A DNA stretch of 64,000 nt from the NCBI RefSeq assembly GCF_054482525.1, contig NZ_CM137006.1, one strand, 5' to 3'. The position numbers and the translations under genes were made by a program. The notes below the pieces were generated by a model that searched no databases, was not told the DNA's origin, and worked only from the letters and a program-made list of their open reading frames with translations. Shown here in pieces: positions 2,518-6,599 of the stretch. Numbering within the stretch: position 1 is the first letter of the stretch; each line of letters begins with the position of its first letter.

Positions 2518-3339
2518 TTATTTTTGCGACAGTTGATCCAGCCTGTCGCGAAAACCGGTAACAGAAATGGCCCGGTTATCGGCGCGCCAGCGATCTTTCG
2601 CGGCAGGAGCCGAACTTTGCACCCCAATTAATTGCCAGCCGTCATCGGTATGCAACATCAGAGGCGAACCGCTGTCACCCGGCAAGGTATCGCACTGATG
2701 TGACATCACCGACGTTTGCGCCCAGCCAGTCACTTCACAGTTTTGATGACTGTACAACGTATCGAGATGATCTTCAGGGTATCCCGCCTGAGTCACTTTA
2801 CGACCTGCCTCTTTTAATGCGGCGGTAAGCGCGGCTTTATCTCCCTCAAATAACGGCAACGGTGTAATGCCAGAAGGGGGATTACGTAGCACAATCAAAC
2901 CGAAGTCCCAGGGCGCAGCTGCGGGAGGTACAATCCAGCCATCCCCATCTGCTTTTAACCGCTTTCCCAGTGTCGGATCAACGCGGCCTTCTATGTCGTG
3001 GATCTCATAGCGCCAAAGACCTTTATTTGACACGAAACGCAGCGCTACCGCTTTATCGGCTTTACCCTTTGGCGGCGTCAATAAACAGTGTCCTGCCGTT
3101 AATGCCAGATTGGGTGCAATCAGCGTCGCCGTACATAAATTGCCGCTGGCCGTTTCCAGTTGGCCAACCGCATCCCACGGTGATTGGGTCGTGTCATTCA
3201 CTGGCACACGATCATCATGACCAAAAAACAGGGTGCTGACCTCATCGTTTGCCGATTTGGCAACGTCTGGTTTATCTGCAAACACAAAAGCAGACGTCAA
3301 ACTAATTGCACCCAACACTACAGCAATGGTTGTACGCAT
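2518..3339 (-). CDS. ydgD: secreted trypsin-like serine protease YdgD
   Basis: 273 aa with N-terminal signal peptide; catalytic motifs LTAGHC and GDSGSP visible in translation. Confidence 0.85.
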
Positions 3340-3438
3340 ATCACACTCTGGTGGGTAATTATGATTATTAAAAGCAAACCCTCATAAATACTATAGACGG
3401 GACGGGATGAAAGTGGGAGTAAAATCAGATAACTACGA

Positions 3439-3522
3439 TCAGGAAAGATAAAAACGGGCGGCAATCAGTGCGCATAAAATAAGGATGATAAGAATGAACT
3501 CAAAGCGATAACGGCCCACCAT
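3439..3522 (-). CDS. ydgU: 27-aa small hydrophobic protein (YdgU-like), MVGRYRFEFILIILILCALIAARFYLS
   Basis: ATG preceded by GGAGGG Shine-Dalgarno at correct spacing, TGA stop; single TM-like segment; below ORF-track size cutoff; name recalled from K-12 small-protein set, not verified. Confidence 0.55.
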   Translation of the reverse strand: MVGRYRFEFILIILILCALIAARFYLS

Positions 3523-3540
3523 ACTACCCTCCGCTAAAGG

Positions 3541-3596
3541 CGGTGCTAAACGTTACCTGCTTAGCACCGTAATTTTCAGGCGCGAGGGGGCGCGCC
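3541..3596 (-). terminator. two GC-rich stem-loops immediately downstream of asr
   Basis: inverted repeats ggcgcg/cgcgcc (3579-3596) and cggtgctaa/ttagcaccg (3541-3569); no clean U-tract. Confidence 0.35.
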
Positions 3597-3614
3597 AGCG
3601 TTACTGTTGAAAAC

Positions 3615-3923
3615 TTACGCTGCGGGTTGTGCAGCAGGTTTTGCCGGTTGCTGATGGCTGTGTTTCTTGGCGTGTTTCTTCGCTGCCTGCGCTTTTTGTT
3701 CAGGAGCTTTCTGTTCAGCTTTCGCATTTTTATGATGCTTTTTAGCCGCCTGCGCTTTCTGGGCAGGTGCTGCTTTATGCTGTTTTTTATGATGTGTGGT
3801 TTTCGCAGGCGCTGCTTTGGTGGTCGTCGCAGTCGGAGCAGGTGTGGTCACAGTCTCTGCAGCAAAGGCAGCAGAAGACAGACCCATAGCAGCGGCAACA
3901 ACCAGAGCTAATACTTTTTTCAT
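3615..3923 (-). CDS. asr: acid shock protein Asr (102 aa; Ala/Lys/Gln-rich periplasmic protein)
   Basis: low-complexity [13 protein letters not shown] repeats and signal peptide; start placed at MKKVLALVV (an in-frame ATG 27 nt upstream also exists). Confidence 0.88.
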
Positions 3924-4307
3924 TGTCATACCCTCAATTTGTTTTTTCATTTAACCCCACTGCGGGGCCGTTGAAATAACTATATCCCTGGGAATGGCAG
4001 ACTTCCGTGAGTGGTTGGTTTCAGCGTGTAACGATATGTACAAACGCTGAATAAATTACAGCATTGATAATAACGTATTGTGACTTAAGGAAAATTTAGC
4101 TACCAATAATAGTAGTCTTGATCGGGTTAACTATTTTACTACTTACAAAGCGGTAGAATAACTGCGCATCAGTAATAAATGACACACAGCAAAATGAATC
4201 CGTTTATTTGGGTACTTATAATCCTGATGACGCTAGATGCGCTGCGGGAATTGGCTGGCGCTTCGTCTATTTTAGGATGGCTATTAACGTTGGTTTGAGC
4301 AGGCAAT

Positions 4308-4347
4308 AAGTCCGGATGGGTATTTACCGCAGTCCGGACTTATTTTT
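4308..4347 (+). terminator. plus-strand-oriented intrinsic terminator-like hairpin (aagtccgga/tccggactt) followed by ATTTTTA
   Basis: perfect stem 4305-4316/4333-4344 then T-run; overlaps ynfM stop; see finding on candidate leaderless ORF. Confidence 0.4.
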
Positions 4348-5599
4348 AGGCGTGCAGACGACGATGCAAACGCGTCCCGACCAGCAGAGCAATGACCAGC
4401 ATCAGAGCAATAAATGCGCCGACGCCGTTCCAGCCATAGTTATGCCAGAAAACACCACCCAGCGTCCCGGCAATACTCGACCCCAGATAGTAACTGAACA
4501 GATACAGCGAAGAGGCCTGGCCTTTAGCGCGTTTTGCGCGGGGGCCGATCCAGCTGCTGGCTACTGAGTGGGCTGCGAAGAATCCGGCTGAGAAGAGTAA
4601 CATTCCGGCAAAGATCAGCCACAGCGAGCTGAATAAGGTCATCAATAAACCAAACAGCATAACCCCCGTCGAAAACAACATCACCGGACCGCGCCCATAG
4701 CGGGTGGTCATGGTTCCGGCTTTTGGTGAGCTCCATGTACCGGTCAAATAAGCCAGCGATAATAAGCCAACCACGGCCTGGCTGACATGCCAGGGGGAGA
4801 GCATCAACCGATAGCCGATGTAATTAAACAGCGTGACGAACGACCCCATCAGCAAAAAGCCTTCTGCGAACAATAACGGTAATCCCCGGTCACGCCAGTG
4901 CAGACGAAAGTTGATAAACAACGTCTTAGGTCGCAGCGAAGTCGGACGAAAATGGCGTGATTCCGGGAGGATTTTCCAGAACATTAACGCCGAGGCCAGC
5001 GCGAAACAACCGATTGCCGCCAGCGCAATTCGCCAGTTGAAAAAGTCCGTGAAGACACCGCTAATTAAGCGTCCGCTCATGCCGCCAATTGAGTTGCCGC
5101 TGATATACAACCCCATCGAAAAGGCCACGAAACTGGGGTGGATTTCCTCGCTAAGATAAGTCATGCCGACAGCTGCTACGCCACTTAACGAAAGCCCAAT
5201 CAAGGCGCGCATAATCAAAATGCCGTGCCAGCTGGTCATCATTGTCGAAAGTAACGTACAAATGGAGGCCAACAGTAGCGCCGTTACCATCACTGGTTTG
5301 CGACCAATGGCATCAGATAACGGGCCAGTAAACAGCAAACCGATAGCCAACATCGCCGTAGAAATGGACAGTGAAATACTACTGTTCGCGGGCGTTAAGC
5401 CAAACTCCTGCGAAAGCACCGGAAGGATAGGTTGCACACAATAGAGAAGTGCGAAGGTTGCCAGTCCGGCAGAGAACAGCGCCAGGGTGACGCGCATAAA
5501 TTGCGGCGTACCGCGTTTAATAAATTGATTTGGCTGAGAAATGCTTTGCTTGTCAGTGTCGCTTGCCGGAGCGCCATCAACAGTTGTAGTACGGCTCAC
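4346..5599 (-). CDS. ynfM: MFS transporter YnfM
   Basis: 417-aa 12-TM-type ORF recognised as YnfM. Confidence 0.88.
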   Translation of the reverse strand: MSRTTTVDGAPASDTDKQSISQPNQFIKRGTPQFMRVTLALFSAGLATFALLYCVQPILPVLSQEFGLTPANSSISLSISTAMLAIGLLFTGPLSDAIGRKPVMVTALLLASICTLLSTMMTSWHGILIMRALIGLSLSGVAAVGMTYLSEEIHPSFVAFSMGLYISGNSIGGMSGRLISGVFTDFFNWRIALAAIGCFALASALMFWKILPESRHFRPTSLRPKTLFINFRLHWRDRGLPLLFAEGFLLMGSFVTLFNYIGYRLMLSPWHVSQAVVGLLSLAYLTGTWSSPKAGTMTTRYGRGPVMLFSTGVMLFGLLMTLFSSLWLIFAGMLLFSAGFFAAHSVASSWIGPRAKRAKGQASSLYLFSYYLGSSIAGTLGGVFWHNYGWNGVGAFIALMLVIALLVGTRLHRRLHA

Positions 5600-5705: not shown

Positions 5706-6599
5706 ATGAATATTGAACTTCGTCATCTGCGTTACTTTGTTGCTGTTGCTGAAGAGCTGCATTTCGGGCGCGCCGCTGCCCGCCTGAATATTTCGCAACC
5801 GCCGCTAAGTCAGCAGATTCAGGCGCTGGAGCAACAAATCGGTGCCCGACTGCTGGCACGAACTAATCGCAGTGTATTGCTGACGGCAGCAGGAAAACAG
5901 TTTCTTGCAGATAGTCGGCAAATCCTGTCTATGGTGGATGACGCTGCCGCTCGAGCTGAAAGACTGCATCAGGGTGAAGCGGGGGAGTTGCGCATTGGTT
6001 TTACTTCGTCCGCTCCTTTTATTCGGGCGGTGTCCGATACGTTATCGCTGTTTCGCCGTGATTATCCCGATGTCCATTTACAAACCCGCGAAATGAACAC
6101 TCGCGAGCAAATCGCCCCGCTCATTGAAGGAACGCTGGATATGGGATTGCTGCGTAACACAGCGTTACCGGAGACGCTTGAACACGCAGTCATCGTCCAT
6201 GAACCGCTTATGGCGATGATCCCGCACGATCATCCCCTGGCAAATAACCCGAATGTAACGCTGGCTGACCTGGCGAAAGAACCCTTTGTCTTTTTTGATC
6301 CGCACGTCGGGACAGGGCTGTATGACGATATTCTCGGACTGATGCGACGTTACCATTTGACGCCCGTCATCACTCAGGAGGTGGGCGAGGCAATGACCAT
6401 CATCGGTCTGGTTTCCGCCGGTCTGGGTGTTTCAATTTTGCCTGCGTCATTTAAACGTGTTCAGCTCAACGAAATGCGCTGGGTGCCGATTGCTGAAGAG
6501 GATGCGGTTTCTGAAATGTGGTTGGTCTGGCCGAAACATCATGAACAAAGTCCAGCTGCGCGTAACTTTCGTATTCATCTGCTGAATGCTCTCAGGTGA
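5706..6599 (+). CDS. ynfL: LysR-family transcriptional regulator YnfL
   Basis: 297 aa; N-terminal LysR HTH (LRHLRYFVAVAEELHFGRAA); divergent from ynfM. Confidence 0.88.
   Translation: MNIELRHLRYFVAVAEELHFGRAAARLNISQPPLSQQIQALEQQIGARLLARTNRSVLLTAAGKQFLADSRQILSMVDDAAARAERLHQGEAGELRIGFTSSAPFIRAVSDTLSLFRRDYPDVHLQTREMNTREQIAPLIEGTLDMGLLRNTALPETLEHAVIVHEPLMAMIPHDHPLANNPNVTLADLAKEPFVFFDPHVGTGLYDDILGLMRRYHLTPVITQEVGEAMTIIGLVSAGLGVSILPASFKRVQLNEMRWVPIAEEDAVSEMWLVWPKHHEQSPAARNFRIHLLNALR

Follow-up and report, generated by a model that had tools for sequence, protein, structure and literature searches.

The asr–ynfM spacer of Escherichia coli and a conserved 34-codon gene of the KPN_01571 family

What is encoded in the spacer between asr and ynfM of Escherichia coli, and where does it begin? 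We addressed this question in a stretch of 64,000 nucleotides from NCBI RefSeq assembly GCF_054482525.1 (contig NZ_CM137006.1), referred to below as the window; its DNA is that of E. coli, and the gene order at this locus is asr, a small gene, and ynfM. An original prediction, made from the sequence alone, had placed an independent unit in this spacer, consisting of a TATAAT promoter, a leaderless ATG at 4227, a 23-codon open reading frame (ORF), and a terminator. The ATG at 4227-4229 does open a frame, 4227-4298, which is translated as MTLDALRELAGASSILGWLLTLV and a stop codon; it encodes a short hydrophobic peptide on the plus strand, opposite to asr and ynfM, both of which lie on the minus strand. 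Our comparative analysis makes it very likely that this 23-codon ORF is the C-terminal two-thirds of a real, conserved, and already annotated 34-codon gene at 4194-4298 on the plus strand.

The reading frame of the 23-codon ORF is open upstream through an ATG at 4194 to another ATG at 4179. From 4194 to 4298 it comprises 34 codons and a TGA stop and encodes MNPFIWVLIILMTLDALRELAGASSILGWLLTLV, a protein of the KPN_01571 family (NCBIfam NF033695). Against this model, which has 30 positions, is named trnsprt_adja_30, and carries a curated cutoff of 35 bits, the ORF containing 4194-4298 scores 63.3 bits and covers profile positions 1-29 of 30. The 23-aa form reaches 33.6 bits, below the cutoff, and covers profile positions 12-29 only. 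The small gene is thus a member of NF033695, bears the same family name in E. coli genomes, and adjoins a transporter gene as the model name implies; Escherichia members differ from the 30-position model by four extra C-terminal residues (34 versus 30 aa). The gene itself is not new, because an NCBI family model exists and automated calls are present in thousands of genomes.

Substitution patterns between genera indicate that 4194-4298 is protein-coding. The proportions of synonymous (pS) and nonsynonymous (pN) differences average 0.71 and 0.20 over 28 genus-level pairs, revealing purifying selection and thereby the codon-level conservation among related genomes that had been named as a check on the 23-codon ORF. 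Variable columns at the first, second, and third codon positions number 17, 9, and 25 of 28, respectively. Between E. coli and Citrobacter or Kosakonia, pS is 0.87-0.88, with synonymous sites near saturation, and pN is 0.18-0.22; the ratio of nonsynonymous to synonymous substitution rates (omega) is 0.09-0.22 where computable. When the same number of substitutions was placed at random, only 0-3 of 2000 placements gave as few amino-acid changes as observed in between-genus pairs. Codons 1-11, which lie upstream of the ATG at 4227, show constraint even when tested alone (p from <0.001 to 0.016 among ynfM-adjacent orthologues). In the two shifted frames, 16-21 of 27 residues differ between genera, and one of these frames contains stop codons. 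Raw nucleotide identity of the ORF is no higher than that of its flanks, a measure that is uninformative alone given a global-alignment baseline of approximately 0.6. Since the amino acids are conserved although nucleotide identity is not raised in the ORF, the constraint acts on the protein and not on an RNA or a DNA site.

Relatives were collected by an exhaustive HMMER search and two indexed protein searches, which identified family members in E. coli, Shigella, E. albertii, E. marmotae, E. fergusonii, many Citrobacter species, Enterobacter, Kosakonia, and Cronobacter. In an alignment of 27 sequences, residues M1, P3, L14, A16, R18, E19, G22, and S25 are invariant, and N2, I5, V7, L11, D15, A23, and S24 are at least 90% conserved. 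The protein encoded in the window carries every one of these residues, including the family start M-N/S-P-F/I and the core L-D-A-x-R-E-x-x-G-A-S-S.

The position of the gene is conserved as well. It is convergent with ynfM, with 40-57 nt between the two stop codons (47 nt in the window), in Escherichia, E. fergusonii, two Citrobacter lineages, and Enterobacter, inside an mlc–ynfL–ynfM block. The same arrangement is found in Kosakonia with one additional gene between the small gene and ynfM, and linkage to ynfM is retained in five of six genera. The neighbour on the opposite side varies and may be asr, an M32 carboxypeptidase (peptidase), or an Rce1-like protease. In Citrobacter, Enterobacter, and Kosakonia, asr and the small gene are separated by the M32 carboxypeptidase gene, and one Citrobacter lineage has a gene for an Rce1-like/CPBP protease there too; Escherichia has neither of the two.

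Where, then, does translation start? All orthologues begin at an ATG equivalent to 4194, and those outside Escherichia encode proteins of 30-31 aa whose N-terminus, MNPF, MNPI, or MSPF, falls at this position. Consistent with this, the NF033695 alignment begins at the Met encoded by the ATG at 4194 (residue 6 of the 39-aa form), and this AUG is unpaired in the centroid fold predicted for the mRNA. We propose that translation would begin at this codon. The ATG at 4227-4229, taken by the original prediction as the start of a leaderless message, is the internal Met-12 of the 34-aa protein. The conserved gene starts 33 nt upstream of it, and the 11 additional codons, as well as the much higher family score of the longer form, show that the 23-codon extent is too short.

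The alternative that survives best concerns the same gene and holds that E. coli translates it from the ATG at 4179, giving a 39-aa protein that begins MTHSK-MNPF. Most Escherichia have this codon, which is GTG in E. albertii; it is the usual choice of the NCBI Prokaryotic Genome Annotation Pipeline (PGAP) and would sit approximately 13 nt from the transcription start site suggested below. The extension itself, an in-frame ATG and four codons (MTHSK, 4179-4193, plus strand), is however not conserved. Most Citrobacter lack it, as do Enterobacter, Kosakonia, and Cronobacter, and a 1-nt deletion in E. whittamii and Escherichia sp. E1V33 creates a stop codon right before the equivalent of the 4194 ATG, which places MTHSK outside the conserved protein. 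The family profile begins at 4194 instead of 4179, and many 34-aa annotations do likewise. We therefore regard a 39-aa product as unlikely.

In E. whittamii and Escherichia sp. E1V33 (approximately 2486-2503 of the retrieved loci, corresponding to window 4179-4196), the deletion leaves a separate mini-ORF, MTHSK and a stop, whose TGA overlaps the main ATG as ATGA. A comparable mini-ORF, MHTAR and a stop, was observed in Citrobacter sp. NCU1. Such mini-ORFs before the main ATG could reflect translational coupling or chance.

Automated annotation is unstable at this locus, with PGAP choosing a start that gives 39, 34, or 23 aa in different genomes; the comparative data set the start at 4194. PGAP annotation of the gene is present in thousands of E. 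coli genomes. In RefSeq, 4179-4298 corresponds to WP_001299090.1, "KPN_01571 family protein", in a strain identical to the window, in a W3110 derivative, and in IHE3034. The 23-codon ORF is called as such in some PGAP runs (WP_211114082.1) and occurs on at least 1000 contigs; it is named "hypothetical protein" because its 33.6 bits fall under the NF033695 cutoff. As a discovery the present result is modest, given that the gene has been rediscovered: the frame and the terminator of the original prediction were right, and its start codon, promoter, and leaderless mechanism were wrong. It is nevertheless of interest that MG1655, the best-curated E. coli genome, lacks this gene although K-12 encodes an identical protein and the comparative evidence is strong.

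The protein is hydrophobic, with a grand average of hydropathicity of 1.48. AlphaFold, run with the 27-sequence alignment, predicted one continuous helix over residues 3-33 (mean predicted local distance difference test score 88.8), in which a central D/R/E cluster interrupts the hydrophobic run. On a helical wheel, the conserved mid-helix residues L14, D15, R18, E19, G22, and S25 are confined to an arc of 140°. The product would be a hydrophobic helix of approximately 31 residues, long enough to cross the inner membrane, and based on this model the protein probably inserts into the membrane. No match to the small protein was found in Pfam, PADLOC, or solved structures (best E = 1.1).

What such a helix might do is suggested by its gene linkage. 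The conserved face formed by L14, D15, R18, E19, G22, and S25 could make a specific helix-helix contact with a membrane partner, for which YnfM, a major facilitator superfamily (MFS) efflux protein, is the obvious candidate. By analogy, the small protein is a candidate for the class of tiny transporter-modulating membrane proteins. It shares with AcrZ–AcrB, KdpF–KdpABC, and MgtS–MgtA a length below 50 aa, one predicted hydrophobic helix, a conserved face suited to packing, and linkage to a transporter gene. It differs from AcrZ-type proteins in that its gene is convergent with the transporter gene, a charged D-x-x-R-E cluster lies in mid-helix, and no transporter gene adjoins the copy in Cronobacter. 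The link to YnfM is weakened by two of these features: the small gene is convergent with ynfM, not co-transcribed with it, and in Cronobacter it is located between the copD/yebY and pphA/rsmF genes, away from ynfM. A functional link between the small protein and YnfM is thus a tentative suggestion that we hold to be considerably less probable than its absence, and a dedicated membrane partner acting on YnfM in the manner of AcrZ on AcrB, with contact through the D15/R18/E19/G22/S25 face, would be at the more doubtful end of that range. Within this latter proposal, the gene would have been overlooked in K-12 because it has no Shine-Dalgarno sequence and is absent from the curated MG1655 annotation.

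Some features of the Cronobacter copy differ from those of the ynfM-adjacent copies. It is preceded by a strong AAGGAG ribosome-binding site, and it is convergent (locus L013, 2501-2746) with an unannotated 43-aa hydrophobic ORF, MLKASNVGRCLMTIFTHEAIVSFIGCVVAAIFMLWLFGRKHDK, for which no family match was obtained. An NCBIfam search of the genes neighbouring the small gene in Cronobacter and Kosakonia returned no match.

A hydrophobic helix of approximately 30 aa with its own promoter and terminator also recalls the type I toxins, and the small gene might accordingly encode a membrane-damaging peptide silenced by poor translation signals or by an antisense RNA. It resembles TisB, ShoB, DinQ, Ibs, and Ldr in size and hydrophobicity, in its organization as a stand-alone unit, and in having weak translation signals, with no Shine-Dalgarno sequence in the copies beside ynfM; it has also been lost in some lineages. 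Unlike the genes of these toxins, it is accompanied by no antisense or overlapping RNA partner that we could find: neither a minus-strand promoter/terminator pair nor an Rfam antitoxin RNA was identified in 3400-5000, in consensus scans that are insensitive. The small protein has no PADLOC match, and its gene occurs as a single copy at a fixed syntenic position across genera under steady purifying selection. Its charged cluster stands in mid-helix and not in a polar tail, and the conserved polar face (D15, R18, E19, G22, and S25) looks more like a contact surface than part of a pore-forming peptide. A toxin is for these reasons improbable.

The original prediction itself, in which TATAAT, the leaderless ATG at 4227, the 23-aa peptide, and the terminator form an independent unit, has the merit that all of its elements exist. 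TATAAT is present at 4217-4222 on the plus strand, with a weak -35 sequence TGAATC at 4195-4200 and a 16-bp spacer at 4201-4216. Perfect TATAAT is under-represented in the window, with 12 occurrences on both strands compared with approximately 33 expected from shuffles, so that it is infrequent there without being rare; the site is retained in K-12 and other E. coli strains; and exactly this 23-codon ORF is called by some PGAP runs. A weaker form of the proposal would retain the box as an E. coli-specific internal promoter giving a short isoform besides the full-length gene. The -35 sequence, however, matches TTGACA at only two of six positions and overlaps the 4194 start codon, the box lies within codons Val7-Leu8-Ile9-Ile10, and a consensus promoter scan made no call at 4217-4222. 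In E. whittamii, E. albertii, and strain E69 the hexamer reads TATTAT, and Citrobacter, Enterobacter, Kosakonia, and Cronobacter lack it, which speaks against its use as the promoter. The A of the ATG at 4227 follows the -10 box by only 5 nt, counted from the final base of the box, where about 7 nt would be usual. At 4227, Citrobacter, Enterobacter, Cronobacter, and E. fergusonii carry CTG or TTG, both encoding Leu, and outside Escherichia an ATG is found there in Kosakonia only. In the predicted fold, the AUG at 4227 is partly paired. Leaderless mRNAs such as that of lambda cI from PRM or of Tn1721 tetR likewise have their ATG a few nucleotides past the -10 box; at this locus, in contrast, the spacing from box to ATG is short, the box is missing outside Escherichia, the coding sequence continues beyond the ATG in the upstream direction, and ribosome footprints are located upstream of it.

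These footprints come from Onc112 ribosome profiling that was later re-analysed. The supplement of an Enterobacteriaceae small ORF (smORF) census, "The Cryptic Bacterial Microproteome" (PMC11188072), lists a minus-strand ORF of MG1655 at 1670992-1671091 tagged Onc112. It corresponds to an alternative-frame ORF of 33 codons that starts with TTG at 4208-4309 on the plus strand of the window and is not a conserved coding frame. In smORFer, the tool behind the census, read midpoints within one codon of a candidate start are counted and more than five reads are required (PMC8421149). Taken together, this midpoint rule and the census row imply ribosome-protected RNA centred at approximately 4205-4213, inside the KPN_01571 ORF. 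The footprints thus centred lie upstream of 4227 and precede the proposed transcript start, which argues against a transcript beginning there. With the codons upstream of 4227 under purifying selection and the 23-aa form below the family cutoff, a leaderless unit, also in its weaker form, is in our view very improbable.

The TTG ORF could itself be the translated product (33 aa), as the census row gives the Onc112 initiation signal to this TTG, and its frame is open in E. coli, Citrobacter, and Kosakonia. In this frame, however, 16-21 of 27 residues differ between genera, TTG is rare as a start codon, and the smORFer authors noted that, with antibiotics other than retapamulin, including Onc112, peaks are broader and at times off-centre relative to the start codon (PMC8421149). 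The final columns of the census row, 0.0928, 0.0287, and 3.23, look like the nonsynonymous rate, the synonymous rate, and omega (PMC11188072); an apparent omega of 3.23 is what would be expected from the wrong frame of a real gene. The census thus probably mis-framed its TTG call and gave the ribosome signal to the wrong frame, and the alternative-frame product has very little probability left. Hardly any remains either for a small RNA without coding function or for a conserved DNA element that regulates asr or ynfM, in which cases the ORF would be incidental. In their favour, the region is flanked by a promoter-like box and a strong terminator and lies within the asr upstream region where H-NS and RNA polymerase SELEX (systematic evolution of ligands by exponential enrichment) peaks were reported. 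Against them, no Rfam match was found at E <= 1, the substitution pattern is protein-like with amino acids conserved at near-saturated synonymous sites and nucleotide identity not above the flanks, the ORF stays beside ynfM where other genes displace asr, and the whole-transcript fold z-score is just -1.67.

For the conserved 34-codon gene, transcription would start upstream of the ORF, the strongest candidate for a promoter being the conserved GGTAGAAT at 4152-4159 on the plus strand, whose -10-like hexamer TAGAAT (4154-4159) starts 40 nt before the ATG at 4194. In an alignment of 10 Escherichia and Citrobacter sequences, GGTAGAAT is the best-conserved non-coding block upstream of the gene; every aligned sequence of the Escherichia and Citrobacter types carries it, with GGTAAAAT in its place in one Citrobacter. 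Equivalent -10-like hexamers are TAGAAT at -42 and TAAAGT at -42 in two Citrobacter lineages and TATAGT at -35 in Cronobacter; in Enterobacter and Kosakonia, CATAAT occurs somewhat further upstream. From these comparisons, we give TAGAAT at 4154-4159 roughly even chances of being the true promoter of the small gene. Transcription starting near 4166 would produce a leader of approximately 28 nt that is A-rich and unstructured and has no Shine-Dalgarno sequence. A further motif, CTACCAATAATAGTAG, is located at 4100-4115, approximately 80-95 nt before the small gene, and reappears in the form TACCATAATAGG or TACCATAATAGAG ahead of the orthologous genes of Citrobacter and Kosakonia; it may represent an operator or else an additional -10-like element (CATAAT).

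Downstream of the gene, where the original prediction had noted a hairpin and ATTTTTA, an inverted repeat has 12-nt arms at 4305-4316 and 4333-4344 that are 100% complementary, with a 16-nt loop and a T-run to 4347. The predicted free energy of the hairpin is approximately -24.5 (plus strand) and -23.5 kcal/mol (minus strand), and none of 200 shuffles was as stable on either strand. Four of eight consensus hairpin pairs covary across species, with both sides changed. A canonical U-tract is found on the small gene's side of the hairpin (TTTTT at 4343-4347 on the plus strand), and the minus strand has only UUAUU, at the stem base, which has a symmetric AAUAA/UUAUU composition. The stop codon of ynfM (4346-4348, minus strand) overlaps the T/A-run. 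Of the two roles originally considered for this hairpin, that of a terminator for the small gene is plausible, and the suggestion that it simply terminates ynfM holds in part: it may serve ynfM too, but not ynfM alone. The element at 4305-4347 is best read as a bidirectional intrinsic terminator common to two convergent genes, at which transcription of the small gene (plus strand) and of ynfM (minus strand) would both end. The ynfM stop codon is TAA in the window strain and TGA in K-12 owing to a 1-nt indel in the T/A-run of the terminator, and the protein end, RRLHA, is unchanged.

A number of observations weigh against the 34-codon gene as proposed here. The curated MG1655 record has no gene annotated between ynfM and asr, and a literature search found no paper naming the KPN_01571 family, NF033695, or WP_001299090.1; the text of the Weaver preprint does not mention the locus either, and the Sakai smORF paper yielded no hit. 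The ynfM-adjacent orthologues lack a Shine-Dalgarno sequence, and no sigma-70 -35 element was found 16-18 bp from TAGAAT at 4154-4159. The Onc112 footprint midpoints at approximately 4205-4213 fall 11-19 nt past the ATG at 4194 and not on it, and the authors of the census assigned the signal to an out-of-frame TTG. Lastly, the gene has been disrupted within E. coli both by a 13-nt deletion and by an insertion sequence (IS), which indicates that it is dispensable in some backgrounds.

The 13-nt segment deleted in one E. coli lineage is 4257-4269 on the plus strand, and its loss truncates the protein to an end in RELAF. Counted with a synthetic junction query at an identity of at least 95%, the deletion occurs in 73 of 5424 complete-genome records, including Nissle 1917, CFT073, ATCC 25922, and clone D, strains of one B2 lineage, sequence type 73 (ST73). 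The deletion looks like a loss in a single lineage. A contig count had suggested that truncated alleles are common, which was rejected by these complete-genome records. The insertion was observed in E. coli HN68, a duck isolate, where an IS4-like ISVsa5 lies in the small ORF (locus L020, 1118-2486; approximately window 4239) and leaves an 18-codon stub that is still labelled as KPN_01571 family. Approximately 98% of complete genomes have neither the deletion nor an IS insertion, and the 301 bases surrounding the locus were found in 5421 of 5426 complete E. coli genomes. Residue 28 (4275-4277) is polymorphic between Gly and Glu (SSILGW versus SSILEW), with Glu encoded on at least 1000 E. coli contigs and in E. 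marmotae; the change is non-conservative and lies near the C-terminal end of the family core.

The neighbourhood of the small gene in the window comprises ydgD (2518-3339), ydgU (3439-3522; 27 aa), asr (3615-3923), and ynfM (4346-5599) on the minus strand and ynfL (5706-6599) on the plus strand. On the minus strand at 4027-4042, the sequence TGTACATATCGTTACA resembles the RstA-box consensus described for the asr promoter. Similar to the small gene product, YdgU is very small and hydrophobic, is encoded in the ydgD-asr-ynfM neighbourhood (0.7 kb away), and is conserved with this block; the two sequences are unrelated, and of the two genes only ydgU (b4601) has a place in the curated K-12 annotation. 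Genomic-SELEX papers reported RpoD, H-NS, and RpoH signals in the ynfM-asr spacer and attributed them to asr. Product names of ydgU vary among near-identical RefSeq records, where it appears as "hypothetical protein", "stationary phase-induced protein", or "small membrane protein YdgU".

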